A stretch of 64,000 bases of DNA from Patescibacteria group bacterium. Lineage in GTDB: Bacteria; Patescibacteriota; SICC01. Made by a program: the position numbers and the translations under genes. This document shows, in pieces, positions 80 through 42,284 of the stretch. The stretch is taken from NCBI GenBank assembly GCA_040902515.1, contig JBBDXB010000006.1, positions 130,219 through 194,218 of the forward strand. The letters are read 5' to 3'. The notes beneath the pieces are model-generated. The model saw only the letters and a program-made list of their open reading frames with translations, was not told the DNA's origin and searched no databases. Numbering within the stretch: position 1 is the stretch's first letter; the number at the start of each line of letters is the position of its first letter.

Positions 80-880
80 TTATGCGTACGCCAGGCCGGC
101 CAACGCCGAGTAACGTTCGTTCAGGCCGTTCAGTACGTCCATTTCCTCATGGCTCAGCTCAAAGTCGAAGACGGTAAAGTTCTCGAGGATATGCTCCCGG
201 TCTGACGCCTTCGGAAGGGGCGACGTGCCGAGCTGGATGTTCCAGCGGAGCAGCACCTGGGCGGACGACTTGCCGTGCCGGACGCCGATTCCCTGCAGCG
301 TATGGTCATCCAGCCGCCGGCCCCGCGTAAGCGGACTGTACGCCTGGATCACGATGCCATTGCTCCTGCAGAACTCGAGCATTTCCCGGGTATACCCGAA
401 CGGACTCCATTCGACCTGGTTGACGACAGGTCGCTCGCCGGTGGCTTCCGTGATCTCCTCGATCTGGTCGGTAGTGTAGTTACTGACCCCGATGTCCCGC
501 GTCAGGCCCTGCCGTTTCGCCTGGATCAGTCCTTCCCAGATGTCGCTTCCGGCACCGTGCCGCGGCGGCCGATGGATCAATACGAGGTCCGCGTAGTCGA
601 GACCAAGGTCATCCAGCCGGTCCCGGGTCGCCTCGAGCCCGTCCTCGTCCTCCTCCACCTTGGTGACGAGGAACACTTGTGCCCGGGGGATATCGCTTTC
701 CCGGATCGCCCGGCCGACGGCCGGCTGGGTACCGTAATCGCCGGACGTATCGATCATCCGGTAGCCGGCTTCGAGCGCGGCGCGAACCGTTTCCGCCCCA
801 CCCTCAAGCTGCCACGTACCGAACCCGATCGCCGGCATCCCGGCGCCCGTATGGAGCCTCAGCCTCTCCATGCCACTCAC
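80..880 (-). CDS. aldo/keto reductase (2,5-diketo-D-gluconate reductase-like AKR)
   Basis: 266 aa ORF with the AKR (beta/alpha)8 signature (GFGTWQL, IDTSGDYG, LVLIHRP, EWSPF). Uniform high-GC coding. Confidence 0.85.
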   Translation of the reverse strand: MSGMERLRLHTGAGMPAIGFGTWQLEGGAETVRAALEAGYRMIDTSGDYGTQPAVGRAIRESDIPRAQVFLVTKVEEDEDGLEATRDRLDDLGLDYADLVLIHRPPRHGAGSDIWEGLIQAKRQGLTRDIGVSNYTTDQIEEITEATGERPVVNQVEWSPFGYTREMLEFCRSNGIVIQAYSPLTRGRRLDDHTLQGIGVRHGKSSAQVLLRWNIQLGTSPLPKASDREHILENFTVFDFELSHEEMDVLNGLNERYSALAGLAYA

Positions 881-1269
881 CCGCCCTTCTTAGCCAGTTC
901 GCGGGCGATTTCCTTCTTGTCCATGTCGGAGGTGCCGCTGATTCCCGCCCGTTGGGCGCGCTTGGCCAGTTCTTCCTTGGTATTGCCTTCCACGTCGACA
1001 CCCTGGAACGTCTCTCCCTTGCCCTGCCGCTTCTCGCTCTGCGACTTCTTCGAGCGCGGATCCGACGGACCGGTACTCCCCTTCAGTTCCCAATGATCGC
1101 CCTTTTTCTCCGCAAGGTTCTTCACGGCTCCCCATGCGGTACGGTGCGCACGTTCCTCGTCGCCGCCGTACTGGTCGTGCGCGCTGTCGAGTGCCTTCCG
1201 GTAGGTATCCTGCACCTTCTTCGACGAGCGCTTGATCGTGTCGGGCATCTCTTCCTTGGTAACGAGCAT
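877..1269 (-). CDS. ChaB-domain protein with C-terminal Rho_N/SAP-like helix
   Basis: N-terminus matches the ChaB family (PDTIK..AHDQYGGDEERAHRTAWGAVK..KKGDHWELK). The C-terminal 35 aa resemble a Rho N-terminal domain (EELAKRAQRAGISGTSDMDKKEIARELAK). 4-nt overlap with the upstream gene. Confidence 0.6.
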   Translation of the reverse strand: MLVTKEEMPDTIKRSSKKVQDTYRKALDSAHDQYGGDEERAHRTAWGAVKNLAEKKGDHWELKGSTGPSDPRSKKSQSEKRQGKGETFQGVDVEGNTKEELAKRAQRAGISGTSDMDKKEIARELAKKGG

Positions 1270-1393
1270 GGGTACCTCCCTGGTTACGTGGATCCATTCT
1301 CCATCACGCGGACGGGGATGTGATTAGCATTCCTCACAATCTCCCCGGAATATCCGGGGATTGTTTGTGCAACACTGATACGCTGCCGGGAGA

Positions 1394-2035
1394 TCAGCGG
1401 CCGCGGCGCTCGGCCTGTGCCGGCACCCCGGCACTGTCTTGTCGATCGGACGTATCCCTGGCGTCACCCCTGGACGGTGTCGTCGGAGGAACGCCGTCGC
1501 CTTTCCCATTGTCGCTGCCACCCCGCTGTTCGACCCGTTGACCCGCGCGCTCGAGCCCCTGCCGGGAAACATCGATGGCCCGCTGGACCGCCTCCTGGGC
1601 CTGCTCGGGTACGCGCTCAAGGACATCGCCAAGGACGGCCTGCTGCCGTTCGAGATTGGTCGTGAGCAGCGCTTGCAGTTCCTCCACGTCCTTGCCGTCG
1701 GACGCCATCTCCGAGATCTTCTCCTCGGCCTTCTGGCGAGCCTCCTCCAGCCGGTCCAGCGCTTCTTCGATCCTGTCGGCCGGTGCCTGGTCGGCGACCA
1801 GGGTCTCGACTTCGTCCAGCTTCGCATCCGCTATGCGTAGATGCGCCCGGGCCTTGCTTTCGTCACGAAACGCCGCGGCTACTTCGATCGATTCCGTCGC
1901 CTGTTTGACCGGATAGAGGGCATCCCCGGGGGCGGCGCCAGCGGAAACGGCGGCCGCGGCGCCGCCACCTGCCAGCAGACCGGCGATCACCATCACCGCG
2001 GCGACAGGCACGAAACCTCGCTGGCCGACTTTCAT
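1394..2035 (-). CDS. secreted/membrane-anchored DUF5667-like protein
   Basis: N-terminal hydrophobic anchor, then the LYPVKQATE motif typical of DUF5667, then a charged coiled-coil-like remainder. Confidence 0.55.
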   Translation of the reverse strand: MKVGQRGFVPVAAVMVIAGLLAGGGAAAAVSAGAAPGDALYPVKQATESIEVAAAFRDESKARAHLRIADAKLDEVETLVADQAPADRIEEALDRLEEARQKAEEKISEMASDGKDVEELQALLTTNLERQQAVLGDVLERVPEQAQEAVQRAIDVSRQGLERAGQRVEQRGGSDNGKGDGVPPTTPSRGDARDTSDRQDSAGVPAQAERRGR

Positions 2036-2089
2036 GCCGCCATCCTAGCATCCGGCGATTACAGGGGCAACGCGGCCGGAGACGGTGAG

Positions 2090-2815
2090 CTACCTATGGG
2101 CCGAGGCTGACCACCTGATCCAGAGTGACCCGGGCAAGCTCGGCCAATCCGCCACACGATCCGGATACCGTCCCGACTCGACCGAGTCGTACACGTTGAA
2201 CGGGTCCCACCGTTCGGCCCGGCGGGTCTGCGGAGACCGGCGGCCGAGCACACAGAAATGGAGATGGTCACCCGTGTACGTTGTGTACGCCTCGCCGCTC
2301 GACCAGTCTTCGTATGAACGCCGGCCGATTCCCATGCCGGTCATACCGGCCCGGCCGATCCGCTCGCCGGCTGATACCCGCTTGGCGCGGATGCTCCTGC
2401 CGTACTCGCTGACCGGCGCGGCGAGATGGGTCGGCATCAGGTCGCCGCGCTCGTCGCTCGTCGGCGCATAGTACGGGATGCCTCCCTCGACTGAATCGAG
2501 GTGCGCGTACTGCGTGTAACGCCCGGGCTTGTGCCAGATCTGCACCACTAGCCCGACGCCGAACCAGATCGGCTCGCCATCATGCCGCCGCGGTTCGTCG
2601 CCGTCCCTGAGTTGGTATTCCTGGAAGGTGGCGATCGCCAGGCCGCCGGCGGCGGCCAGCACCGGCGTGCCCCTGGATGCGTCGAAGTCAATGGCTCCGT
2701 GGCGTTCGACCCCGTGGACCCGCTTCTCCGTCTCCGAATACTCCCAGCCGGTCGCGATCTCTGGCTCAAACCCTGCTTCGAAGAGCGGGCTTAGGAATGG
2801 CTTGGGTGCGGGCAT
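2090..2815 (-). CDS. M23 family (LytM) metallopeptidase
   Basis: HGAIDFDA...GTPVLAAAGG...YAHLDSV...GDHLHF: HxxxD and HxH zinc motifs of peptidase M23. Confidence 0.8.
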   Translation of the reverse strand: MPAPKPFLSPLFEAGFEPEIATGWEYSETEKRVHGVERHGAIDFDASRGTPVLAAAGGLAIATFQEYQLRDGDEPRRHDGEPIWFGVGLVVQIWHKPGRYTQYAHLDSVEGGIPYYAPTSDERGDLMPTHLAAPVSEYGRSIRAKRVSAGERIGRAGMTGMGIGRRSYEDWSSGEAYTTYTGDHLHFCVLGRRSPQTRRAERWDPFNVYDSVESGRYPDRVADWPSLPGSLWIRWSASAHR

Positions 2816-3033
2816 GGCTCACGACATTGTATCATCGTGGCCATTTGTCCGATTGCTTCGTTGCACCCATCGATTACGAGCCCTTTCGACCTGAACTTCC
2901 CAGGTCTCGTCAGGCGCTATGCGCAAGGGCACTTCACGCTGGGTCTGGGTCTCTTGCGAGTCAGTCTTGGTGGACGAATCCAAGCGCGTGAAGTTATGTA
3001 CGTCCGCGGGTCAAACATCAGCCGTCGGTGTGG

Positions 3034-3285
3034 CTATCGCCGTGGTGGTCGGGACTGCCGTGCACGAGAGCCCATGTAGGAGAGGAAAATCGCCGCAAGG
3101 AAAGTGAGGGCGAGTGGCCACATGTACACCGCATCGTCTGTCCTCATCAATAGGCTGATGAAGACAGCACCAAGCACGGCGTTTGCGATGCCCACAATCG
3201 TAATCAAGCTCATGACGTACTTCTCCTTCGTTTCGGAGTCAGGACAATACTGCTGTGAAAGAGCCAGGGGCGGAGCTCCTTGCAC
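3034..3285 (-). CDS. small hypothetical membrane protein
   Basis: Two predicted TM helices. Lies in a lower-GC patch. The start is probably internal (MSLITIVG). Weak support. Confidence 0.3.
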   Translation of the reverse strand: MQGAPPLALSQQYCPDSETKEKYVMSLITIVGIANAVLGAVFISLLMRTDDAVYMWPLALTFLAAIFLSYMGSRARQSRPPRR

Positions 3286-4303: not shown

Positions 4304-4951
4304 CTAGCTCCTGGGAATGAATCGCTTGGCCGCGTCGTCCTTCAGCTGCACCGATTGCTCCAGGTCGAATGTATCATTCAGCGCCTGCTTCACGAGCCAG
4401 TAGCCCGCGCGATACCCGGCCCACTTGCCGAACGGACCGTCGAAGAACCACTCCGCGTGGTTGTATTGCTCGTTATCCCACTGCTGCTCGATCTGCCGCC
4501 AGACTTTCGGGGCGAGAGCCGGTCCGGTAATCCACGGCGCCTGCCAGCCGGACTGGATCCCCGCGAACCAGCACGCCATACCCTCGGTCACCAACGCCCG
4601 CCCCAGCGTTTGGCCGTATCCCCCGTTCTGCCAGCGGGTCAGGTGGTGGAGCTCATGGGCAATGGCGTCAATTAACGGCGGCTCGTCCGTCGGCCATTCT
4701 TCGACCGCAACAAACGCTTCGTGCGCATTAGGGGAATATCCGCCCGGATACCTACCCTCGATCGTCGCTTCCGAAATATCCCTGACGTAAAGCGTCTGCC
4801 GATCGTCCTTAATCTGAGGAGCAATCGCCTTCCAAATATCGGCTACTTTCGTGGGAAGCTTCGGCTGGGTGTCACCCTGCAAATTCACACACAAAGCCAG
4901 CAAGACCTTGCCCTGCGCCGAAAAGTCCATGGTCGTATATGAATCAGGCAC
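4304..4951 (-). CDS. putative Zn-dependent peptidase (HExxH, DUF2268-like)
   Basis: 215 aa with AHELHH (HExxH) and a predicted-Zn-protease-like architecture. Same strand and about 200 bp downstream of the RiPP precursor gene. Confidence 0.5.
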   Translation of the reverse strand: MPDSYTTMDFSAQGKVLLALCVNLQGDTQPKLPTKVADIWKAIAPQIKDDRQTLYVRDISEATIEGRYPGGYSPNAHEAFVAVEEWPTDEPPLIDAIAHELHHLTRWQNGGYGQTLGRALVTEGMACWFAGIQSGWQAPWITGPALAPKVWRQIEQQWDNEQYNHAEWFFDGPFGKWAGYRAGYWLVKQALNDTFDLEQSVQLKDDAAKRFIPRS

Positions 4952-5155
4952 ATGTACAAGATAGACCTAGTGCACAGCAAATAAAAACAGCCACACCTAA
5001 TGGGTAGCTGTTCCCGTTTCGACCGAAACTTCCTCGGTCTCATCAGACGCTAAGCGTGACGGGCCCGACATGATCCTGTGATGTTGCGTAAGCAACCAGG
5101 ACCATGCCGGGTATTAGCGAGGTTAGCTAGAATAAGCTCGCTATTTCTCCCTTGT

Positions 5156-5401
5156 TCAGGGCGCGAGCGGTGACGATGGAACAGTTCCGACACCGAGCGG
5201 TGCTCGACTGCATCGGGAGCTCTGCGCGAATCCACTCGATTGACCAGACCCCTGGCAGCCACCGCAGTTGCCGCCACCGCAGTTGCCACCGCAGTTCGGG
5301 CCACCGCACATCGGCCCAGGCTCTCCACCGCCACAACTGCCATTGCCGGCTATCCCGGCACGAGTAGCGGGGCGCTGACGAACGCTGACTGTAATATCCA
5401 T
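5156..5401 (-). CDS. TOMM/LAP precursor peptide (Cys/Gly-rich, heterocycloanthracin-like core)
   Basis: RBS AAGGAGG lies 5 nt upstream of ATG (5399-5401); a GTG at 5405-5407 is an alternative start. Peptide: MDITVSVRQRPATRAGIAGNGS-CGGGEPGPMCGGPNCGGNCGGGNCGGCQGSGQSSG-FAQSSRCSRAPLGVGTVPSSPLAP. It starts 7-13 nt after the YcaO stop. Confidence 0.7.
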   Translation of the reverse strand: MDITVSVRQRPATRAGIAGNGSCGGGEPGPMCGGPNCGGNCGGGNCGGCQGSGQSSGFAQSSRCSRAPLGVGTVPSSPLAP

Positions 5402-5413
5402 GTTCACCTCCTT

Positions 5414-7234
5414 TCAGGCGAACGGATGAGGTGTGGTGGGCCCGTAGTCAGAGAAGTCAATTCTCCTGCCCAACACGCGATCATCGATTTGTATTGTTTC
5501 GCCGGCGCGCGACATTCCGTACGGCTCCTGATCATAGCCAAAGGTAATCGGCAAGAGTCCAGGGATGAACGCCCGGACGACATGGAGACCCTCAGAAAGC
5601 GGCAGCGTCAAATCGACTACCACCGGCTCCGAGACCACCGAACCGATCTGCGACAACTTGCCCACGTGGCCATGGACATCCTGCAGATCAGTCAGTTCCG
5701 TTGAGCTGTGAAGGAACGCGGCACCTTCAGCAACCGTGCTGTCAGTATACAGCTTCTGATGGTCAGTCGCCGAATGCACATCCTCCAACTGTATCTCTTC
5801 TTCTGGCTGGAAGAGATCACCACCCCACAAGACCGAACCGGCCTCGTAAAGCGCTTTTCGAGCAGCGCTCTCTGCGTCAAAGGCACACCCACTACCGAGA
5901 ATGAGTGTCCGCTTGGTATGGACGGCGCAGAGAATCACCGGCAACGTCTCGAGCGTCAGATTGACGAAATCAGCACTGTAGCCGACTTGGTTCAACCTCT
6001 CTAGCCACGGGCTGAACTCCTCTGGAAGTGATTCCGCACTGATGCGCTCACGCGAAACCCGTTGCAGCCAGGTCCACATATACGCATCACGCTCAATGAC
6101 CTCAAAAACCGCTCGCTTTATCGCCTCGTCGTAAGACGTATGTGCGGCAATGCCCGAGCTATTCGAAGCCGCTAGACTACTTCCAGGAAACGGGAACAGC
6201 GTCAGCTCGGCGGGGACCCAGCGAGCGGAACCACTCAACGTCTTCCCCTCGATCCAATGGTACGGACGTGAGGGCTCGTATTTGTGCAGAGATAAGTTGG
6301 ACCGGTACTGACGCTCATTGAACTTAATCAACGATCGAGGGTCGCACACCGGAGCTGGCAACTCACCCTCGGTTCCGGATTGGAGCTGACGCTCCGCTAC
6401 CTCCCCACTTACGAAACGCTCAGTAGCCTCGGCATAGGCGATGACGCGAGCCTCAGCTGCCGTGGATGCCAGCCCCATACAGGCCGCGTCCTTATGATCC
6501 TCAGCGAAAAGCAGGTTCGGACACGCATACTTGCTACTGCAGAGGTGAACGCCCAGCGACCGCGAAAGGTCACTCGTATTCACAACCGTGTACCGAACGA
6601 TGCCCAACCGGGAATCATTTTGCCACCCTCGCAGAACTTTGTTTCGCTCTATCGAGGTGACTTTGAGATCAGGAAGGTCGACTACGTGAACCATATCCTC
6701 ATCCCATTCCTGCGACTGCTCAACCACCTGCGCCAAGAGGGCTCTCGGGGGCTGGTCACCGACCACGGTGACTTCCTCGCTTCCGGCACAATAGCCGTAG
6801 GCATACAACCGCTCCTCCGGCTCGATGTTGGCGATGAACGCCCTCACTGCGCGTTTGGTAAGCGCAGCATCGGCTCCGACTGGCAACACCAGCACCTCCT
6901 CGGCCGTAGTAACGAACCGAGAGACCTTGTTATTGCCCACCAGCCGAACTATGGCGTCTCCGAGGGGGGTCACCTCATCCGGCAGTGGTTCTTCGGAGCT
7001 GCGACCTTCCCGGATGAATCCCGCATCGAGTAGCGCTGTGGTTAACTGAGCTTCTTTCTGGGAATCAAGTCCGATCGACTGTAATGCGTCAAACCCTGAT
7101 TTGAAGAGTTTCAGCATCTTCATCTTGCTGTCATGAGGGAGGTTGAACTTCAGTCGACTAGTCGACTCTGGTGAAATGAACACCAAACCCTCCCCCGTCA
7201 CACCGCACAGGTGCGACAACGGCAGGATATACAT
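5414..7234 (-). CDS. YcaO-domain cyclodehydratase (TOMM 'D' protein) with about 230-aa N-terminal extension
   Basis: Hallmark YcaO motifs: SNSSGIAAHTSYDEAIKRAVFEVIERDAYMW and GSGCAFDAESAARKALYEAGS. 606 aa. The start sits 1 nt after the SagB stop, suggesting translational coupling. Confidence 0.85.
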   Translation of the reverse strand: MYILPLSHLCGVTGEGLVFISPESTSRLKFNLPHDSKMKMLKLFKSGFDALQSIGLDSQKEAQLTTALLDAGFIREGRSSEEPLPDEVTPLGDAIVRLVGNNKVSRFVTTAEEVLVLPVGADAALTKRAVRAFIANIEPEERLYAYGYCAGSEEVTVVGDQPPRALLAQVVEQSQEWDEDMVHVVDLPDLKVTSIERNKVLRGWQNDSRLGIVRYTVVNTSDLSRSLGVHLCSSKYACPNLLFAEDHKDAACMGLASTAAEARVIAYAEATERFVSGEVAERQLQSGTEGELPAPVCDPRSLIKFNERQYRSNLSLHKYEPSRPYHWIEGKTLSGSARWVPAELTLFPFPGSSLAASNSSGIAAHTSYDEAIKRAVFEVIERDAYMWTWLQRVSRERISAESLPEEFSPWLERLNQVGYSADFVNLTLETLPVILCAVHTKRTLILGSGCAFDAESAARKALYEAGSVLWGGDLFQPEEEIQLEDVHSATDHQKLYTDSTVAEGAAFLHSSTELTDLQDVHGHVGKLSQIGSVVSEPVVVDLTLPLSEGLHVVRAFIPGLLPITFGYDQEPYGMSRAGETIQIDDRVLGRRIDFSDYGPTTPHPFA

Positions 7235-7235
7235 A

Positions 7236-8186
7236 TCAACCTCCAGTAATGATGGTTAGTAATGGAACAACCTCCTCGGACAGCTCGAGAAATTCCTGAG
7301 TCTCTCGGTCGAGGAACCCCCCGATCGGGCGCATCTTCACACCCAGCTCCGCTGCAGCCAGCATGGCATTCTGCATCGCCGCACCAGCCTCGAGGAGTAC
7401 GTACCGATAGGCCCGGTTACCATACTTCTGGGCACTTCGGTCCAGGTCGGCCGAGATAAAAATTACAACCTGGCCCTGACTGAGCAGCTCGTCAGTCGGT
7501 TCGGCGTTCAGCATGATGGTGAAAACATCCTGCTTGGCCGGGTTGACCGACTGAAGCATCCCGGTCTCTACGTTGAACCACCAGAGACCCCGATTCAGGC
7601 CGTCGATCTGACCGTGTGCGGCCACGTGGATGACTAGCGGATAAAGAGCGCCGCCAGAAGGGACAGTCCGGTGTCCGCTCTCGGTAAACCCGTACGTGGC
7701 ACGGACGATTCCAGATAGCGATTGAAGCGTCAGCTTGGTTCCAGAGTCCTCCGGATACGCCGACGACCTTTGCGCAAGCAGACGCGCCAGCTCTAGGCCT
7801 GAATCGGGAGTCTCCAGCACCTTGCCGGCATTACTCGGCTCCCAACGAGGCGCCGCCGTGATGGCAGCAATTTCCTCATCGGTACGAGGCTCAAAGAACG
7901 GATTTTCTCCGTTTGAGCTGGCCCGGTGAAAGAAGCGGAACGCCTGAGTGCAATCAGCGACCACACCCAACTGCTTAAGCTTTTTAAGAAGCTCGAGAAT
8001 ATCCTCTCGCTCCCCAGGCCACTGACTGAGAATATCATCCGACATCCTGGTTCCGTCGCAAAGCTCCAGAACCTGCTCAGCCAAACCGACCTCGTTGCCC
8101 TCGAGCACTACCTCTACTGCTCCCGACTGAAGGACAAGCTTGCCGTCTTCATGCCGGACTACCGCCAGAAGCAGCGGCCGATTCAT
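7236..8186 (-). CDS. SagB-type FMN-dependent dehydrogenase (TOMM 'B' protein, nitroreductase fold)
   Basis: PSGGALYP signature of SagB/McbC-type dehydrogenases and a nitroreductase-like C-terminus (RYVLLEAGAAMQNAMLAAAELGVKMRPIGGF). Strong RBS AAGGAGG before the ATG. Confidence 0.85.
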   Translation of the reverse strand: MNRPLLLAVVRHEDGKLVLQSGAVEVVLEGNEVGLAEQVLELCDGTRMSDDILSQWPGEREDILELLKKLKQLGVVADCTQAFRFFHRASSNGENPFFEPRTDEEIAAITAAPRWEPSNAGKVLETPDSGLELARLLAQRSSAYPEDSGTKLTLQSLSGIVRATYGFTESGHRTVPSGGALYPLVIHVAAHGQIDGLNRGLWWFNVETGMLQSVNPAKQDVFTIMLNAEPTDELLSQGQVVIFISADLDRSAQKYGNRAYRYVLLEAGAAMQNAMLAAAELGVKMRPIGGFLDRETQEFLELSEEVVPLLTIITGG

Positions 8187-8224
8187 AATGACCTCCTTGT
8201 TCTATTTCCTATGAATTAAAGAAC

Positions 8225-8262
8225 AGCGGAGAATTATAGCACTTTCCCAGCCAGGACAATTG
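8225..8262 (-). promoter_or_regulatory. sigma70-like extended -10 promoter of the SagB-YcaO-precursor operon
   Basis: Minus strand reads ...ccaattgtcctggctgggaaagTGcTATAATtctccgctg... (extended -10 TGnTATAAT at 8233-8241, weak -35 TTGTCC) about 45 nt upstream of the SagB RBS and ATG. Confidence 0.5.
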
Positions 8263-8356
8263 GTACATTCCGACGAACTCACCAACCTCGGTCGGGTTGG
8301 GAACTGGCTTTTCCGTGCTATTGCGAGGTTTTCGCGCATCGGTTCCAGTCTGTGGC

Positions 8357-9181
8357 TCACTCACTAAAGTACCGGACTGCTGCTTCTGGATCCTCCGCAC
8401 GCATGAGATGCTCACCGATCAGGACTCCGTCCACGCCGGCGTTACGGAGTTCCGACAAAAGCGCCCGCGACGCTTCGTCCACCTGGAAGCCGCTTTCCGT
8501 TACCACCAACGTCCCGTCAGGAACCTCGCCGAGCAACGTTGCCGTGAGTCCTGTGTCGGTCGTGAGTTCCGGGTCGCGCAGATTCCGGTTGTTCACTCCG
8601 ATGATCTTGGGTCGAACGGCCACGGCGCGTTCCAGTTCTTCGGCGTCGTGTACTTCGACTAGGACATCAAGCCCGATTGAGTCCGCATACTCACTCAGTC
8701 GCGAAAGCTCATCGTCTTCAAGCGCTCCCACGATCAGCAATGCGGCATCGGCGCCGGCTGCCTTTGCCTCAAGAAGCTGATAGTGGTCAGTGATGAAGTC
8801 CTTCCGCAACAAGGGCAGGTCGGTCACCTCCCGGCCTTTCCGGAGGTGATCGAGCGAACCCCCGAAACGGGTCTCCTCCGTGAGTAGCGAAATAGCCCGA
8901 GCCCCGCCCCATTCGTAGGCGGCAATGGTCTCCACGACTCCCCAGTCTTCCCGAATCATCCCTCTGCTTGGAGATCGACGCTTGTGCTCCGCAATGACCG
9001 ACAACCCGGGACGACCCAGGGCGTCCGCGAAAGACCCTTCCCGATTCCGCCAGCGCTCCGCCTTGGCGAACAGCTCCGACTCCCCGACCTCGCGTTTTCG
9101 GACCATTGCTTGTTCGCGCGACGATGCCGAGAGTTTCTCAAGTATGGGGACGGGCTTTTCCATGGCAAACCAGCGTATCAC
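8357..9181 (-). CDS. trpC: indole-3-glycerol phosphate synthase
   Basis: IAEHKRRSPSRG...LLRKDF...GADAALLI...VLVEVH...IGVNNRNL: classic IGPS motifs. Confidence 0.85.
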   Translation of the reverse strand: MIRWFAMEKPVPILEKLSASSREQAMVRKREVGESELFAKAERWRNREGSFADALGRPGLSVIAEHKRRSPSRGMIREDWGVVETIAAYEWGGARAISLLTEETRFGGSLDHLRKGREVTDLPLLRKDFITDHYQLLEAKAAGADAALLIVGALEDDELSRLSEYADSIGLDVLVEVHDAEELERAVAVRPKIIGVNNRNLRDPELTTDTGLTATLLGEVPDGTLVVTESGFQVDEASRALLSELRNAGVDGVLIGEHLMRAEDPEAAVRYFSE

Positions 9182-9400
9182 GCCCCGCCGGTAACTCGAC
9201 AGATATCCAGATTAGTAATGCTCCCCAGTCGGGTCTGGAACCTTTACGGCTAGACCATTGAAACGTTTTCAGTGTCTCACAATTCGAACCGATCAGGCAT
9301 GGAATGGGACAAATGGAACGCCATGATTGCTGAGTGAGGTGAGATACGAGCAAGTTCGCCAGTCTCAGAAAATCGACTATGGCCTAGACCCTGCTCACCT

Positions 9401-9430
9401 TTTACACAAAACACTCCCTAACTGTATAAT
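9401..9430 (+). promoter_or_regulatory. strong sigma70-like promoter giving a near-leaderless helicase transcript
   Basis: -35 TTTACA (9401-9406), 18-nt spacer, extended -10 TGTATAAT (9423-9430). The ATG is at 9439, only about 8 nt after the -10, so there is no room for an SD. Confidence 0.5.
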
Positions 9431-9438
9431 AGCGCGCT

Positions 9439-11892
9439 ATGAACAAGTCAGAGCCACGAGAACATGAAGTTGATTATACCGAGGTTTTTACCGATAGTCT
9501 TATTAATCCCGAAGTAGCGCCGGAATTAGACCAGGTACAGGAAGATTGTTTAAGAGAAATCGCATACGCACGTGATCAAGGGGAGCAGCGTGCATTAGTT
9601 GTGCTCGCATCCGGCATGGGTAAAACAAGAATTGCCGCGAAAGACGTGTCTAATTTCTTTATCGAAAACCCTAATAGTCGCGTATTGTACCTGTGCCACC
9701 AGAACGAGATACTCAGGCAGGCTGAGCAAGAATTTCGCGGAGTCCTCGGATCCCCTCATAGCTACGGCCAGTTTGCCGGACATGAAAAGGAGTTTGATGA
9801 AGTCAACTGCCTATTCGCTTCTTTCCAGACTATGCGAGATTGGAAGGATGCGTTCCTACCGGAAGAGTTTGACTACATTATAGTCGACGAGGGTCATCAC
9901 AGCGCTGCCAAAACATATCAACCAGTCTTGGAATATTTTAATCCGCGGTTCGCCCTCGGTTTAACTGCGACCCCTGATCGTGGCGATCTCAAGGACATCC
10001 GAGCGATTTTCGGACCTGAACGTTACTCTATGCCACTTGAAGAGGCATTAGCAGAAGGACACCTGGCTCGAATAGACTACCGTCTAATGGCTGATGAAAT
10101 CGATTGGGATGAAGTCCGGAAAGCAGCAGAAGGCCATGTAACAATGGCAGATCTTAATCGACGAGTATTCATTGAACACCGAGATGAAGAAATCGTCGGA
10201 GTAATAGACAAACACCGGGCAGAGCTAGATGGGGCAAAAGTCATGGTCTTCTGCCCTTCAATCGCTTACTGCGATCGTTTGGCGGAAGTAATGCCCGATG
10301 CCGTGACAATTCATTCGGCATTATCGGCCGGAGAGCAGCGTTTGAAACTTGAAGATTTTCGAAGTGGTCTAATCAATACAGTAGTAACTGTTGATAAATT
10401 CAATGAGGGCATAGACATCCCCGATGCGAATTTAGTTGTTTTTCTACGATCCACCGCGTCTAAGAACATATTCATCCAACAGCTCGGACGTGGCTTACGC
10501 AAGACACCTGAAAAGCAAGGGGTGCGTATTCTTGATTTTGTAAATAATCTTGAGCGCATGGAGCTCATCGACGAACTATGGCGAGATGTCACCGAACGAT
10601 ACCGGCGCATGCACGGCACAGCAGAACAAGAAGCGCTCGTTGTGGATATTGGAACCGTAAGCTTCGAAGAAATCAACAAAGACCTTCAGGAGGTTTTGGA
10701 ACTGCTCAGACAGGGTTACACCAAGGAAAAACTTGTGGGCCAACTGCTCGCTTTAGCCGAAGAGTTAGGTAAATCACCATCAATCCCAGATATTCGACGA
10801 GCCCAAGAAGAGAAGCGCTGCGCAAGCCCGGGCACGTTCGCCAGGCATTTTGGCTCTTATAACAAGGCGCTCGAAGCGGCCGGTCTGGAGTCACGTGCGA
10901 AGCCACCTTCATACACAACTGAAGAACTAGTCCAACAGCTCACTAACCTCGCTAATGAGCTGGGGGTTACTCCCCTGGTCAGCGATATCGATAGCGCACA
11001 TGAAGAAGGAATATGTGCTAGTACCGATGTCTTTCGGTCACGCTTTGGCTCACTACGACAAGCTCGCGAGGCGGCTGAACTAGAGGCGACTGAGTGGAGA
11101 AGGTACTCAGATCACGAGTTGCTGGAACAACTTACTCAGCTTACGGAGGAACTCGGTCATGCCCCTACGAGTAGTGACATTAACCGAGCTTTCGATGAAG
11201 GTAGGACTGCAAGTATCGACACCTTTCATCGTCGGTTCGGGACACTGGCAGAAGCCCACAAGATTGCGAGGGTCTTCGATAAACGCACTCACCGACTCAG
11301 TGATCAGCAACTACTTAGTCAGCTCAAGCAGTTGCATGAAGTAGAAGGGCGTCCGCTAAACCGCGTTGACCTCGCTGAAGCACGTCGTGAAGGTCGAGGC
11401 CCGAGTCCCCAATTGCTTGTGAAACGATTTGGCTCGACACCGGAGGCGCTACGTCGAGCAGGTATTCCTCTACGCATCCCGGCACACCGGAAATTTGGAA
11501 CAACAGAGTTCACCGAGGAAGATCTTATCCAGCGACTCGTGGCCTATAGCGAGGAGTTGGGACGAGTCCCAAGTCAAAGCGAGTTGGTTGATGCGTCAAA
11601 ACAAGGAAAGTGTCCCAATGCTTCGGTCTTCGCCAGACACTTTGGAACATACAATAAAGCAGTTAAGGCAGCTGGCCTGAAACCAGTTGCGGAGAAACCA
11701 AGTTACACAGACGATGAGCTGCTTGAGCAGTTGCGTAGCCTTGCAAAAGAACTTGGTTCTATTCCCACTAAGAACCAAGTCAAGGAACTTTCTAAACGGG
11801 GAAAGTGCGCGACCAGCACAACTTTTATTAAAAGGTTCGGCACATTTGAAGAAGCGCTACAACTCGCAGACATTCATCTGAAAGACTCTTGA
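9439..11892 (+). CDS. SF2 DExH-box helicase (ResIII-like) fused to 7 tandem homing-endonuclease-associated repeats (HEAR)
   Basis: Walker A LASGMGKT, motif II DEGHH, and helicase C-terminal motifs (QQLGRGLR). These are followed by seven roughly 55-aa repeats of the form E(E/Q)LLxQLxxLAxELGxxP...D...G.....T....FGSxxxALxxAGL. Lower GC than the surrounding genes. Confidence 0.8.
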   Translation: MNKSEPREHEVDYTEVFTDSLINPEVAPELDQVQEDCLREIAYARDQGEQRALVVLASGMGKTRIAAKDVSNFFIENPNSRVLYLCHQNEILRQAEQEFRGVLGSPHSYGQFAGHEKEFDEVNCLFASFQTMRDWKDAFLPEEFDYIIVDEGHHSAAKTYQPVLEYFNPRFALGLTATPDRGDLKDIRAIFGPERYSMPLEEALAEGHLARIDYRLMADEIDWDEVRKAAEGHVTMADLNRRVFIEHRDEEIVGVIDKHRAELDGAKVMVFCPSIAYCDRLAEVMPDAVTIHSALSAGEQRLKLEDFRSGLINTVVTVDKFNEGIDIPDANLVVFLRSTASKNIFIQQLGRGLRKTPEKQGVRILDFVNNLERMELIDELWRDVTERYRRMHGTAEQEALVVDIGTVSFEEINKDLQEVLELLRQGYTKEKLVGQLLALAEELGKSPSIPDIRRAQEEKRCASPGTFARHFGSYNKALEAAGLESRAKPPSYTTEELVQQLTNLANELGVTPLVSDIDSAHEEGICASTDVFRSRFGSLRQAREAAELEATEWRRYSDHELLEQLTQLTEELGHAPTSSDINRAFDEGRTASIDTFHRRFGTLAEAHKIARVFDKRTHRLSDQQLLSQLKQLHEVEGRPLNRVDLAEARREGRGPSPQLLVKRFGSTPEALRRAGIPLRIPAHRKFGTTEFTEEDLIQRLVAYSEELGRVPSQSELVDASKQGKCPNASVFARHFGTYNKAVKAAGLKPVAEKPSYTDDELLEQLRSLAKELGSIPTKNQVKELSKRGKCATSTTFIKRFGTFEEALQLADIHLKDS

Positions 11893-12469
11893 AAAGTCTA
11901 GTGGAGTTGCAACACAGACAAGCAAACTTTCTCGAAAGAAGGATTAGTCGGGTTGGGAACCCTCTTTTCGAGGCCGCTTTGGGCTTTCTTAACCTTCACC
12001 CCTAAGCATGCTCGGGTTGGTGACTGGATTGCGGATTATTCGCGACCGTTGAGAGATTTCTTGAGCTGGTTCTACACCGTCCCTATTGGCTCCGGGTCTG
12101 GGACAACGTTAGAACCTACTTCAAAAGCACAGCAGCGGTTCGTTCGTAGAGCTTCGCTACGGCTTCTCCGTTTTGAACACGGTGATTAAACTCCGTCAGC
12201 GTTTCGCCATTCAGCTGATCATATAGTGTGTCGTACATCAAAACAGCCAGGAGCGGCTCCCACCGATCCCGCGAATATGCCGACTCAAGTGCACCCATTG
12301 AACAACGCGCCTTTCCATGACTGCTCATACCGCTAACTCGCCAGCCATAGGTTCGTATATAGAGCGCGGCCTTCCGGAAGATTTTGGCTGACCGACTTTT
12401 TAACGGTGGTGAAATCATGACTTGATTACATGGCATAGCGTCGTAGTTTATTAATGTTGCTTGCTCCGG

Positions 12470-12543
12470 GACAGGGATTCGAACCCCGATTACCAGATTC
12501 AGAGTCTGGCGTCCTACCATTAGACGATCCCGGAATGGGCCGT
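12470..12543 (-). tRNA. tRNA-Gln (CTG)
   Basis: Cloverleaf: acceptor TCCGGGA/TCCCGGA, anticodon stem CCAGA/TCTGG, loop CTCTGAA, T-loop GGTTCGAATCC. Confidence 0.8.
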
Positions 12544-39416: not shown

Positions 39417-42284
39417 TTGACAGCCAGTCATTTTTTTGCTAAGATAAGGCAATTTTTCGGGTTCCCGATAATCCCCCAAAAATACGCAGCCGGAACAGCA
39501 ACACAGAACAACGTGCTCGGACGATTCCCATTCAGGTCGACGCTCATCCGCCTCGCGGCGGTGGTCACGCTGGCATTGGTTCCCCTCGGGACCGCGGCAC
39601 CGGCCGAAGCGGCGGACGGGTACCAGTTTCCCTGCAGCCCATACAAGCTATCGGGGTATAACTTCGGACAGCACGTGTCCGGCTGGGGGTATCACGCCGG
39701 CCAGGACATCGCCTGCTCTTCCGGGACCCCCGTCTACGCGATCGCCGACGGGAAAGTGGTCTACTCCGCGCTGACCCCTGACTCCTGGCGCTGGGGAAAC
39801 CTGATCATGATCGAGCACGCCAACCCGAACGGTTCCAAGGCCACCAGCATCTACGGGCACCTCAGCAACAACCGCCGGGTCGCAGCCGGCCAGCGCGTCA
39901 GCAAGGGGCAGCATATCGGCGCGATCGGGCCGAGCAATACCCGGGAGAACGGACGTTGGGGGGACCACCTCCATTTCGCCGTCCACCTCGGGGCCTACGG
40001 AGCCTCGACCGGTACGTACTGGTCGGCCATCCACGGATACGAGCCGGCCAGCAAGATCGGCCGGTACGCGCACCCCGGGAAGTACATCACTTCGCGGCAG
40101 AACTATTACAGTTACCAGTACGTCGGCCAGAACGGCGGCGGTTCCAAGGCCAGGACGGAAGAACATTACGTCGAGTTCCGACTCAAGAACACCGGACAGG
40201 CCACCTGGCGGTCCAGCGGTTCGAACGCGGTCCGGCTCGGGACCGAGCGGCCGCGTGACCGCGGCAGCACGTTCTCCCGCGGCATGGGCGGACATGGCTG
40301 GCACGCTCCGAACCGGATTTCCCTGCAGTCCGACACGCCCCCGGGACAAGTCGGGGTCTTCCGGGCTCGCTTCAACAACAGCTACGTCTCGCCCGGAAAC
40401 CACCGCGAGTACTTCACCCCGGTCGTGGAGGGGATCAGCTGGATGCGGAACATCGGCATGTACACCGGTATCCGCGTGCAGGGATACAACTACCGGGCCC
40501 AGTGGTACGGGCAGAGCGCCCACTTGGAGCTATCGCCGACCTCCCGACAGACCACTAACCATCACCGCTATCTCGCGGCGGGCAAGAAAGTGAATCTCAA
40601 GGCGTACATCAAGAACACCGGCGATTACTCCTGGCATGCCGGAGGCAAGCACCCGGTCCGGCTCGGCACGAGCCGCTCGATCGATCGGAAGAGCCGCTTC
40701 GCGACGACTAAGCGCGACGGCGTTCCCGACGGCGAGCAGTGGATTAGCGGCAGTCGGGCGACCGGACTGAACGGCCGCCTGGACCCGTCCACCAACAAGG
40801 TCGTGGGAGACAGTACGATCGAACCCGGCCAAATCGGCGTGTTCTCGTTCACGATCAAGGCACCCGGCACGCCGGGGACCTACCGGGAATACTTCCGGCC
40901 GGTCCTCGAGGGCAACCGCTGGCTGGATGACTTCGGCATGTACTTCGAGCTCCGGGTACTGCCGCATGGATTCCACTACGAGTGGGTCAAGCAGGAGAAC
41001 CCCGAACCGGTGGCCTATGAGCACGGGGACGCCACCACGCGGGTCTACCTCCGGAACACCGGCCAGGCGGCCTGGCCCACCGGGGGTAACGTGCGGCTGG
41101 GAACCGACCGGAGCCGGGACCGCAAGTCGGCCTTCAAGGGCGGCGACTGGCTGGCGGCCAACCGGGCCAGCACGATCGATGAGGTCGCCGACGCGCCGGG
41201 TGAACGGGTCGTGGATCCGGGACAGGTCGCCCGTTTCGATTTCAAGGTGGAAAGTAAGGTCAAACCGGACGGCGGGTACAAGGAATACTTCCGGCCGGTG
41301 GCGGAAGGCAAGGCCTGGTTCCCCGAGGACTACGGCATGTACGTGCCGGTGCACGTCGAATCACCGCCATACGGCTACTCCGTGCTTGACCAGCGGTTCT
41401 CCAAGGATCCGTCCGACGCCAAGTACGGCGAGGTCATCGAGGCGGTGCTACAGGTCAAGAACCTGGGCAGCAACCCCTGGCCGGCGGACGGGACCAACGC
41501 CGTCCGGCTGGGAACGTTCCGCCCGCAGGATCGGCAGTCCGGCTTCGGCACGGTCGGTGGAAGCGCGGGCTGGATCAACGCAAGCCGGGCCGCCCGGATC
41601 AGCGGCAAGGTCGACACGGACGGTACGGTACAATCGGCCAGCGAGATCAACCAGGGCGAAGTGGCCCAGTTCAAGGTACCGCTCCGGATCGATTCCGCAC
41701 TCGATCCCGGCAGCTATAAGGAGTACTTCAACCTCGTCCACGAAGGCAAGGCCTGGATGCCGGACCTTGGCATCTACTTCCCGGTAACGATCACGTCCGC
41801 GAACTATGACTATGAGGTACTGGACAAGCGGTACTCACGGGACCCCCGGCAATTGTCGGAAGACGACGAAGTCGAGGTGCGGGTGGCCGTCCGGAACACC
41901 GGCCGCTACGCCTGGCCGGTCAGTGGCAGCAACGCGGTCCGGCTCGGGACCGAGCGACCGCGGGACCGCAGTTCCGCATTCCGGACGACCACCGGTAGCG
42001 ACCCTTGGCTGGCGGCCAACCGGGCCAGCGGTATCGACGGCAAGGTGACCGACCTGGCCACCCTGGCGACCGTACCCGCCACCGGGATCAAGCCCGGTGA
42101 GGTCGCCCTGCTGAAGTTCACCCTGACCGCGAACAAACTCGGCAGCCATCAGGAGTACTTCTCGCTCGTCCAGGAGGGCGTGACCTGGTTCCCGGACCAT
42201 GGATTGATGATTTCCCTGAACATCACCGCACCGGCCGGTATCAACGATCCCGACGCGTCACCCTCACCGAGCCCGGCACCGTAA
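39417..42284 (+). CDS. secreted M23 peptidase with 5 tandem NBR1-like Ig (beta-sandwich) repeats
   Basis: Signal peptide. M23 domain (GYHAGQDIA...GTPVYAIADG...DHLHFAVH). Five roughly 115-aa repeats, each with NTG..W / VRLGT.RP.DR.S.F / PG.....F.....G.Y.EYF.PV.EG..W. Confidence 0.8.
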   Translation: MTASHFFAKIRQFFGFPIIPQKYAAGTATQNNVLGRFPFRSTLIRLAAVVTLALVPLGTAAPAEAADGYQFPCSPYKLSGYNFGQHVSGWGYHAGQDIACSSGTPVYAIADGKVVYSALTPDSWRWGNLIMIEHANPNGSKATSIYGHLSNNRRVAAGQRVSKGQHIGAIGPSNTRENGRWGDHLHFAVHLGAYGASTGTYWSAIHGYEPASKIGRYAHPGKYITSRQNYYSYQYVGQNGGGSKARTEEHYVEFRLKNTGQATWRSSGSNAVRLGTERPRDRGSTFSRGMGGHGWHAPNRISLQSDTPPGQVGVFRARFNNSYVSPGNHREYFTPVVEGISWMRNIGMYTGIRVQGYNYRAQWYGQSAHLELSPTSRQTTNHHRYLAAGKKVNLKAYIKNTGDYSWHAGGKHPVRLGTSRSIDRKSRFATTKRDGVPDGEQWISGSRATGLNGRLDPSTNKVVGDSTIEPGQIGVFSFTIKAPGTPGTYREYFRPVLEGNRWLDDFGMYFELRVLPHGFHYEWVKQENPEPVAYEHGDATTRVYLRNTGQAAWPTGGNVRLGTDRSRDRKSAFKGGDWLAANRASTIDEVADAPGERVVDPGQVARFDFKVESKVKPDGGYKEYFRPVAEGKAWFPEDYGMYVPVHVESPPYGYSVLDQRFSKDPSDAKYGEVIEAVLQVKNLGSNPWPADGTNAVRLGTFRPQDRQSGFGTVGGSAGWINASRAARISGKVDTDGTVQSASEINQGEVAQFKVPLRIDSALDPGSYKEYFNLVHEGKAWMPDLGIYFPVTITSANYDYEVLDKRYSRDPRQLSEDDEVEVRVAVRNTGRYAWPVSGSNAVRLGTERPRDRSSAFRTTTGSDPWLAANRASGIDGKVTDLATLATVPATGIKPGEVALLKFTLTANKLGSHQEYFSLVQEGVTWFPDHGLMISLNITAPAGINDPDASPSPSPAP

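Follow-up and report, generated by a model that had tools for sequence, protein, structure and literature searches.

A probable precursor peptide family with a short leader and a conserved C-terminal tail beside a dehydrogenase-YcaO gene pair in Patescibacteria

The precursor gene and the adjoining enzyme genes

We analysed a 64,000-nucleotide stretch of contig JBBDXB010000006.1 from a Patescibacteria group bacterium (assembly GCA_040902515.1), referred to as the window throughout. On its minus strand lies a small open reading frame (ORF) that an initial annotation had assigned to the precursor peptide of a thiazole/oxazole-modified microcin (TOMM), or linear azole-containing peptide (LAP), pathway. 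The ORF directly follows genes for a SagB-type flavin mononucleotide (FMN) dehydrogenase and a fused YcaO cyclodehydratase, and both this adjoining enzyme pair and a set of homologous loci support the assignment to a YcaO/dehydrogenase pathway. Reading begins at an ATG at 5401 and ends at a stop codon at 5156-5158, giving an 81-aa product, MDITVSVRQRPATRAGIAGNGSCGGGEPGPMCGGPNCGGNCGGGNCGGCQGSGQSSGFAQSSRCSRAPLGVGTVPSSPLAP. The gene and its parts are as follows.

5156-5401, minus strand: gene for the 81-aa precursor peptide, stop codon included, from ORF translation and family conservation
5407-5411, minus strand: Shine-Dalgarno sequence GGAGG, read directly from the sequence, 5 nt before the precursor ATG and touching the YcaO stop codon (5414-5416)
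5378-5395, minus strand: leader strand motif I3-T-V-S-V-R8, with the family pattern phi-x-phi-[ST]-x-[RK]
5231-5338, minus strand: core, residues 22-57, SCGGGEPGPMCGGPNCGGNCGGGNCGGCQGSGQSSG, with 6 Cys, 5 of them as CGG
5159-5230, minus strand: follower, residues 58-81, with the end motif S77-P78-L79-A-P (nt 5165-5173) and an inner APLGVG at residues 67-72

The whole precursor holds 7 Cys and 13 Ser+Thr among its 81 residues. Six of the Cys lie in the core (residues 23, 32, 37, 41, 46 and 49), where Gly-Gly follows five and Gln-Gly follows Cys49; the seventh, residue 64, is within the tail. The initial annotation had described a 35-residue core with 7 Cys, each followed by Gly-Gly. Its CGG units are real, and the counts need correction to 36 residues, 6 Cys and 5 Gly-Gly pairs. 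Other parts of that description stood. A tandem repeat in the core DNA was located at 5258-5318 by TRF, with a period of 12-15 and 2-3.7 copies. The leader is short, and neither NCBIfam nor Pfam returned a match for the peptide, in keeping with the stated absence of NHLP or Nif11 character; the 14 family members introduced below likewise lacked an NHLP/Nif11 match in NCBIfam even at E values up to 10. Membership of these leader families was rejected on the lack of profile matches and on a conserved leader of only ~10 aa. The 24-aa Cys-containing tail is also present as described, and comparison identified this follower as a conserved feature of the family.

When used as a query against a collection of 5.8 billion proteins, the precursor peptide found no match, itself included. 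The only other copy of the locus, on Logan contig L046, is 100% identical over 4200 nt and gives no sign of repeat-number variation in this strain. There the gene caller picked an overlapping, out-of-frame 97-aa ORF (4892-5185, equivalent to window 5050-5343, minus strand), and the peptide is missing from protein databases because of this choice of another frame in an identical contig. The 97-aa ORF crosses a hairpin and enters a ribozyme, both described below. The precursor frame, with its conserved end motifs, recurs after orthologous YcaO genes in loci of diverged DNA and is the only frame open in every related locus; in locus L003 the two other same-strand frames hold 5 and 6 stops across the precursor ORF. 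Most precursor copies in the related loci are preceded by a Shine-Dalgarno site and, as read from the sequences, conserved leader and tail codons differ synonymously between the window and locus L001. An opposite-strand ORF (5240-5704), which the initial annotation had raised as a competitor, is antisense to the homology-supported 3' end of the YcaO gene and was rejected. No sigma-70-like promoter or intrinsic terminator was detected around the precursor gene. Judged by these comparisons of sequence, the 81-aa ORF is very likely a genuine precursor peptide gene.

The genes flanking the precursor on the same strand are the following.

7236-8186, minus strand: SagB-type FMN dehydrogenase, 316 aa, with a probable RRE-like winged-helix module at about residues 6-78 and a nitroreductase-fold domain at residues 150-312
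5414-7234, minus strand: fused cyclodehydratase, 606 aa, with a probable RRE-like part at about residues 9-75, a reduced E1-like part to about residue 250, a YcaO domain at residues 253-576 and the C-terminus PHPFA
4304-4951, minus strand: DUF2268 predicted Zn-metalloprotease containing HELHH (Pfam PF10026, E 8e-20), syntenic with locus L001

RRE stands for the recognition element of RiPPs, peptides that are made on the ribosome and then modified after translation. The gene order is thus dehydrogenase (B), fused RRE/E1-like-YcaO (CD) and precursor (A), with 1 nt between the dehydrogenase stop and the YcaO start and 12 nt between the YcaO gene and the precursor ATG.

The dehydrogenase scored 104.6 bits against TIGR03605, over the cutoff of 78.4, and matched Pfam Nitroreductase at E 5e-19. 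Its invariant K254-Y255 aligns to K201-Y202 of McbC, a catalytic pair whose role has been described (PMC6395948). The YcaO protein, labelled 'YcaO-like family protein' by NCBI in an identical sequence, matched Pfam PF02624 at E 1e-49 over residues 253-560, and its closest solved YcaO domains by sequence are those of TruD (E 4.7e-20), followed by LynD and MusD. The family alignment shows the invariant motifs AEAxER, ExxERD and a C-terminal PHPF(A/P); we take the first two to be putative ATP/Mg-binding motifs and the last to be, presumably, the Pro-rich tail of azoline-forming YcaOs.

The N-terminal regions of both enzymes gave fainter signals. Pfam and NCBIfam returned nothing useful for the first 250 residues of the YcaO protein; an AlphaFold2 (AF2) model of this part, with a pLDDT of 85, starts with a beta-beta-beta-alpha-alpha arrangement. 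Cap2, Atg7, NAE1 and MoeB were the E1-like proteins named in the analysis of the YcaO protein. A profile of the dehydrogenase N-terminus (residues 6-78) weakly matched the PbtF RRE (E 0.066) and the part of MusD that contains its RRE, and also Pfam families of PqqD and winged-helix proteins. Aligned with hhalign, residues 12-78 of the dehydrogenase fell on residues 12-78 of the YcaO protein (E 5e-5, probability 67%). The single-sequence AF2 model of the dehydrogenase N-terminus is poor (pLDDT 48) and has three strands followed by helices, which in our reading is the order expected of an RRE. These weak matches and models suggest that both enzymes probably carry an N-terminal RRE-like module. 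A precedent on the oxidase side is ThcOx, a cyanobactin oxidase with fused RREs (PMC6395948).

A precursor family with two conserved ends

Related loci were collected by tracing YcaO homologues at 75%, 43%, 42% and 35-39% identity to their contigs. A scan of genome contigs with a single YcaO sequence gave no match; a rescan based on an alignment succeeded. Four loci are from the window's own clade, with YcaO proteins 42-75% identical, and the others come from Thermoleophilia metagenome-assembled genomes (MAGs) and from metagenomes. A small ORF directly follows the YcaO gene in almost all of the traced homologous loci, and about 30 homologous peptides were found beside orthologous dehydrogenase-YcaO pairs. 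Homologues next to YcaO genes in related genomes, whose absence the initial annotation had named as a refutation, do exist. Representative members are listed here.

L001, directly after YcaO: one precursor, MDIKLSVRER...GLRSPLAG
L003, directly after YcaO: one precursor, MTKIKVTIKNR...ALSPLTSA
L005, directly after YcaO: two copies, with ends LSPLTN(A)
L006, directly after YcaO: three copies, MPKFTITVTDR...ELSPLSS
L009-L012, directly after YcaO: precursors in Thermoleophilaceae and Solirubrobacteraceae MAGs
L008, 2.7 kb downstream of the YcaO gene: two copies
L049 (two copies) and L050, right after the dehydrogenase-YcaO pair: precursors found by profile only

A third peptide found by profile only, that of L051, is not within 5 kb of any YcaO gene. 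A profile of 14 peptides (A2) retrieved 17 peptides from a large collection, all of them labelled 'hypothetical'. When a further profile (A8) was run against 1.84 billion representatives with no word index, 14 matches were obtained at E <= 1e-3, 12 of which are genuine small peptides of the same kind. So few matches among so many representatives indicate that the family is real but rare.

End motifs were counted in anchored columns over 24 distinct members. The N-terminus reads F(18/24)-x-[VI]-x-V(23/24)-[ST](24/24)-x-[RKQ](24/24) and the C-terminus [LV]-S(20/24)-P(24/24)-L(23/24)-[AST]-x, and in 21 of the 24 the P-L dipeptide stands 2-3 residues from the C-terminus. The four members that lack the conserved tail Ser have V, A or I at this position. 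Between these ends the sequence is hypervariable, with 0-7 Cys over the family. The initial annotation had likened the CGG repeats to the repeat logic of heterocycloanthracin-class TOMMs; a Gly/Cys-rich core occurs only in the window and L001, the other members having 0-5 Cys and unrelated cores, and CGG repeats are no trait of the family. By sequence comparison the family appears to be defined by two conserved ends and a hypervariable core, and not by CGG repeats.

The number of internal repeats differs among the close relatives P0019-P0027, and tandem paralogues occur. One 82-aa member, P0021 (L049 5001-5249), contains two leader-like motifs (FTVSVTDR and FEVIVTER), two AQKCKC cores and a single SPLAD tail, and can be read as a two-cassette precursor. 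Tandem paralogy, differing repeat number and a double cassette would all be typical behaviour of RiPP precursors. Conserved ends that enclose a variable core, in peptides whose genes always accompany these two enzymes, are the signature of a RiPP precursor family. We consider this one, as judged from its members, to be rare, unannotated and undescribed, and to be marked by a leader of very few residues and by the SPL tail conserved at its C-terminus.

Within the Thermoleophilia a subtype (L008 3637-8701, L051 and the contig of P0006) has tails extended to ...PLSCRAA... and is linked to genes for Mur-ligase-like, DUF6421/DUF4350, short-chain dehydrogenase and beta-eliminating-lyase proteins. 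Two antiSMASH-based surveys cover Patescibacteria genomes and did not analyse this family: one reported YcaO-type RiPP clusters (PMC12153355) and the other no clusters at all (PMC11613949). Our literature searches found nothing relevant on Thermoleophilia together with YcaO, nor on DUF2268 in RiPP contexts.

Predicted hammerhead ribozymes and genomic setting

The intergenic region downstream of the precursor gene holds a structured RNA module, and a second ribozyme of the same type lies further along the same strand.

5064-5111, minus strand: hairpin of ~20 bp, 44 nt past the precursor stop and directly 5' of the hammerhead, with an RNAfold z-score of -4.9
5011-5065, minus strand: type III hammerhead HHR1, matching Rfam RF00008 end to end (34.4 bits, E 1e-5, local scan), with predicted cleavage after GUC between 5058 and 5057
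2872-2934, minus strand: second hammerhead HHR2, 64.4 bits and E ~1e-16 with a covariance model from five sequences, with the core CUGACGAG...CGAAA

HHR1 begins 91 nt downstream of the precursor stop codon and its catalytic core is complete (GUC|, CUGAUGAG and CGAAAC). A hammerhead follows the last precursor gene in the window, L001, L003 and L005, which are all four of the clade loci that reach that far; it is absent from the Thermoleophilia loci. In L001, L003 and L005 a hairpin of unrelated sequence occupies the same place 5' of the hammerhead. Across five sequences 97.5% of the cells in the pairing are paired and 6 of 16 pairs show compensatory changes, two per helix; none of 500 shuffles reached the observed covariation score. 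Stem I has just 4 bp and an N-U-A triloop (UUA, AUA or GUA), and loop II, GGAAGU, is invariant.

These elements share with type III hammerheads of RF00008 the catalytic core CUGAUGA...GAAA, the NUH site and a three-way junction with covariation in all helices. They differ in their scores, which stay under the Rfam gathering score of 48.5 (34.4 bits for HHR1 and 40.7 for the L005 copy), in the 4-bp stem I with its triloop, and in a structured domain that always abuts the 5' side of stem III. At HHR1 and its relatives this domain is the ~20-bp hairpin; at HHR2, whose core shows the allowed N7 variant CUGACGA, it is branched and has a closing stem of 9 bp. HHR2 lies 2.1 kb beyond HHR1, after an ORF for a 59-aa membrane protein (~3036-3213, minus strand) and before an M23 peptidase gene (2090-2815). 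The two ribozymes bracket a block comprising the DUF2268 gene, a 71-aa ORF, a NUDIX gene and the 59-aa ORF. Bacterial hammerheads flanking genes in prophage operons have been described, with processing of polycistronic RNA as their proposed function (PMC3088659). The two copies around a short gene block resemble that arrangement, in a context that, unlike that of the known phage hammerheads, is chromosomal and non-phage, in a Patescibacteria lineage.

A scan of metagenomes found one new copy (L047 9872-9934, minus strand), where a hammerhead and hairpin follow an unrelated 129-aa membrane-protein gene on a low-GC contig from JGI (Ga0164243_10003555) with no RiPP genes nearby, and a RiPP-specific ribozyme was rejected on this ground. 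A pattern scan of viral contigs for the hammerhead found none, and our literature search returned nothing relevant on hammerheads together with Patescibacteria. As far as the sequences go, the hammerhead-hairpin module would be a general intergenic element of the lineage. HHR1 is likely to cleave the polycistronic transcript ~98 nt beyond the precursor stop. With cleavage between 5058 and 5057 and the hairpin 5' of the site, the precursor message would end in a strong hairpin.

The DUF2268 gene starts ~200 nt downstream of the precursor, followed by the NUDIX gene and small ORFs; beyond the opposite end of the operon come genes for TrpC and a helicase. The identical YcaO protein in NCBI is encoded on a contig of 638,718 bp. 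Elsewhere the window contains housekeeping genes (Ddl, RNase Y, ATP synthase, IMPDH, PRPP synthetase and ATCase) and 11 tRNA genes, and the locus is therefore chromosomal. The 11 tRNA genes are spread over 12464-61603 of the 64 kb, every one on the minus strand, and GC skew is negative over nearly the whole window. Most Patescibacteria lack amino-acid biosynthesis, and tryptophan genes are unusual there. In the window trpC (8357-9181, minus strand) stands beside the RiPP operon, and L003 (YcaO 43% identical) has TrpD-, TrpG- and TrpE-like genes and a PALP enzyme beside its operon (112-3094; 11349-12491). A low-GC stretch at 8000-12000 (0.49-0.54 against ~0.63 elsewhere) adjoins the RiPP operon and includes the gene for an 817-aa ResIII/helicase protein (9439-11892, plus strand) in which the 'homing endonuclease associated' HNH_repeat unit occurs six times; this stretch may be foreign DNA. 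Two adjacent proteins of 955 aa (39417-42284, plus strand) and 747 aa (42394-44637, plus strand) combine M23 peptidase and Ig-like (N_BRCA1_IG) domains and are candidate cell-wall-attacking surface proteins.

Proposed azole biosynthesis and alternative readings

Comparison with characterized YcaO-dependent systems places the operon among several of them without matching any one. In composition and local motifs the window core looks more like microcin B17 than heterocycloanthracin, to judge by sequence. It is Gly-rich with Cys set in Gly and shares the motifs GSCGG and CGGC with the microcin B17 precursor McbA, and the L001 core has a G9 run where McbA has G10. Alignment of the dehydrogenase with McbC takes in the catalytic Lys-Tyr pair, and beta-strand binding to an RRE is predicted for the leader, with F-x-[IV]-x-V in Thermoleophilia members for the FxxxL of McbA. 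In contrast to microcin B17, the putative E1-like/RRE part forms one protein with YcaO and is much smaller (~250 aa), McbB being a separate protein; the conserved leader has ~10 aa, that of McbA 26 aa; there is a conserved follower; the dehydrogenase apparently has its own RRE-like domain; McbEFG-type export and immunity genes are absent nearby; and the producer is a Patescibacteria MAG. Homology to McbA itself was rejected at the level of sequence (BLASTP E 5.4; no match with phmmer against PDB sequences including McbA). The McbA sequence used for comparison was verified against PDB 6GOS chain A.

One resemblance in the tail is recorded separately. The window peptide and McbA have only two 5-mers in common, GSCGG and PLGVG. 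The latter is part of the follower's APLGVG (residues 67-72, nt 5186-5203), which matches SPLGVG at the McbA leader/core cleavage junction. In a post hoc test, 48 of 20000 composition-preserving shuffles of the tail likewise shared a 5-mer with McbA residues 1-30. The family-wide SPL motif also resembles McbA ...SRQSPLG, and we keep the resemblance as an unexplained lead.

The enzymes, by contrast, appear architecturally closest to the cyanobactin type, with a fused heterocyclase and an RRE-bearing oxidase. Among solved YcaO domains those of TruD, LynD and MusD come nearest, YcaO is joined to a putative RRE/E1-like part, and the oxidase probably bears RRE-like domain(s) of its own, as ThcOx does. 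Precursor elements are conserved on both sides of a hypervariable core, sometimes with several cassettes (here P0021). The differences from cyanobactins are considerable: identity is low, the N-terminal part has ~250 aa as against ~400 aa, and neither PatA/PatG-type subtilisin proteases, among the neighbours in the window or the genes tabulated for the related loci, nor a prenyltransferase is present. The PatE leader is recognized through LAELSEEAL, and AYDG(E) lies at the extreme C-terminus of PatE; here the leader is far shorter and unrelated to that recognition sequence, and SPL stands in place of AYDG. With heterocycloanthracin and sonorensin the system shares the Cys-Xaa-Xaa (CGG) repeat logic of the window core and the combination of YcaO with a SagB-type dehydrogenase. 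It differs from them in the unmatched TIGR03601 model, the unrelated leader, the presence of a follower and the lack of CGG conservation among homologues. Bottromycin-type precursors offer a parallel of another kind, being YcaO-dependent RiPP precursors with a conserved C-terminal extension past the core. They differ in having no leader, and their YcaOs have no SagB-type partner; here both ends are conserved, and the sequences are not similar. The operon is best classed as a LAP/TOMM system whose precursors form a new family, and it stays in line with what is known of YcaO azole biosynthesis.

We favour the reading, with a probability of roughly 0.8 on the sequence evidence, that the ORF at 5156-5401 is the structural gene (A) of a compact LAP/TOMM operon and that its product belongs to a new family of precursors. 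The loci themselves show the order of the genes and the motifs; we infer every biochemical step of the scheme that follows. The N-terminal strand M-D-I-T-V-S-V-R-x-R would dock as an extra beta-strand on the RRE-like domain of the YcaO protein. Using ATP, the YcaO domain would cyclodehydrate the Cys of the CGG/NCGG core to thiazolines, possibly together with Ser22 beside Cys23, and the SagB-type FMN dehydrogenase, in which the catalytic Lys-Tyr pair is present, would oxidize the thiazolines to thiazoles. The C-terminal [LV]-S-P-L-x(1-2) follower would act as a second recognition element. Leader and follower would then be trimmed, possibly by the adjacent DUF2268 metalloprotease, which is thus a possible leader/follower peptidase. 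Such processing would yield a poly-thiazole peptide that is rich in Gly and similar to microcin B17.

The leader step has a structural counterpart. In the McbBCD-McbA complex, residues 9-14 of the leader extend the RRE sheet by a beta-strand, and two pockets are occupied by an Fxxx[LIV] motif (PMC6395948). The F-x-[IV]-x-V of Thermoleophilia members fits this TOMM leader motif, and the window's clade keeps the alternating strand (I-T-V-S-V-R) and has lost the Phe. By this analogy the leader is predicted to be a minimal beta-strand motif of the RRE-binding kind. With two conserved handles and two probable RRE-like domains, each enzyme may have a handle of its own, and as a tentative guess, which we favour over others for this element, the follower is the docking site for the RRE-like domain of the dehydrogenase.

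Several observations weigh against the LAP/TOMM assignment or parts of it. The YcaO protein scored 175.3 bits against TIGR03604 (SagD family), under the curated cutoff of 219.25, although this is still its top-scoring model and is covered over profile positions 1-351 of 377. Its C-terminus is PHPFA and not a full PxPxP; P-H-P-F is invariant across the family, and homologue P0005 ends in PHPFP. Four members (P0012, P0020, P0024 and P0025) hold only 0-1 Cys, which suggests that Ser/Thr or another chemistry matters elsewhere in the family. The role given to the follower is inferred throughout. NCBIfam and Pfam scans of the neighbours (TrpC, helicase, DUF2268 and NUDIX) revealed no exporter or immunity gene nearby, and linkage to DUF2268 is confined to the window and L001, being absent from most loci. 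The hammerhead module also follows unrelated genes (window 2872-2934; L047) and is thus not specific to RiPP loci.

The label 'heterocycloanthracin-like', given to the peptide in the initial annotation, would place it in the heterocycloanthracin/sonorensin class, with Cys-Xaa-Xaa repeats processed by a fused cyclodehydratase of that type. Five CGG units in the core speak for this, TIGR03601 is the sole NCBIfam model to touch the peptide, and heterocycloanthracin clusters also contain a YcaO fused to a shortened N-terminal domain, as here. However, TIGR03601, which has a cutoff of 35, reached just 11.3 bits at E 0.4 and aligned only the compositionally biased residues 22-64; neither TIGR03882 nor an Ocin-ThiF-like model matched the YcaO protein or six other scanned genes. 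Leader and follower are unrelated, most homologues have no CGG repeats, and the relatives are Patescibacteria and Thermoleophilia, not Bacillus. We therefore rejected membership; this reading is highly improbable and, at the level of sequence, effectively refuted. To the proposal that the real gene is the 97-aa ORF (5050-5343) or the opposite-strand ORF (5240-5704), or that nothing is coding, we give next to no credence. Several frames are open in this GC-rich repeat, the gene caller took the 97-aa one, and the 81-aa peptide is absent from the 5.8-billion-protein collection. Yet the 97-aa frame runs across the conserved hairpin into the hammerhead and, as in L003, alternative frames are interrupted in relatives, the plus-strand ORF lies antisense to the YcaO 3' end, and Shine-Dalgarno sites, conserved end motifs and synonymous substitutions are found in the precursor frame alone. 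A genuine small protein that is no azole substrate, whether metal-binding or structural or the target of another YcaO modification (a thioamide, an amidine or a change at the SPL Ser) with the variable region as a spacer, would account for members with 0-1 Cys, for conservation concentrated at the ends with Ser in 20 of 24 tails, and for the TIGR03604 score under cutoff. It is improbable, since a SagB-type dehydrogenase with the Lys-Tyr pair always accompanies this YcaO and the pairing fits only azoline formation followed by oxidation. No TfuA partner was present among the scanned neighbour genes, the conserved Ser is replaced in four members, and conserved ends around a variable middle are the usual layout of RiPP recognition elements and core.

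The main alternative for the follower itself is that SPL signals proteolytic processing or (macro)cyclization, like AYDG or the McbA SPLG|VG, and is not a docking site for the dehydrogenase. Its position at the extreme C-terminus recalls AYDG(E) of PatE, the nearest solved YcaO domains are cyanobactin heterocyclases, and P0021 has two cassettes. The match of APLGVG to the McbA junction (the post hoc shuffle test given above) and the DUF2268 metalloprotease adjoining the operon in the window and L001 point the same way. No PatA/PatG-type subtilisin protease is found in any locus gene table, however, cleavage after SPL-x would take off just 1-2 residues in most members, and most loci have no DUF2268 gene; we regard a processing signal as unlikely. 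More speculative than the LAP/TOMM reading, and quite unlikely as a whole, is a combined picture in which a microcin-B17-like Patescibacteria poly-thiazole peptide is made by two-handed recognition (leader with the cyclodehydratase RRE, SPL with the dehydrogenase RRE) and its message is released and stabilized by the hairpin-hammerhead that punctuates the polycistronic RNAs of the lineage.

The analysis defines a rare, unannotated RiPP precursor family, of which the window's peptide is missing from databases since gene callers take the wrong frame. A minimal leader and a conserved follower, with apparently one RRE-like domain per enzyme, make leader versus follower recognition testable in a three-gene system. 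The conserved hammerhead after the precursor gene and the second copy in the window would make mRNA processing by ribozymes accessible to study in an operon on a chromosome. The locus is among the few concrete, analysable natural-product loci in Patescibacteria, and the resemblance of its core to a DNA-gyrase poison bears on the dealings of these epibionts with hosts or competitors.

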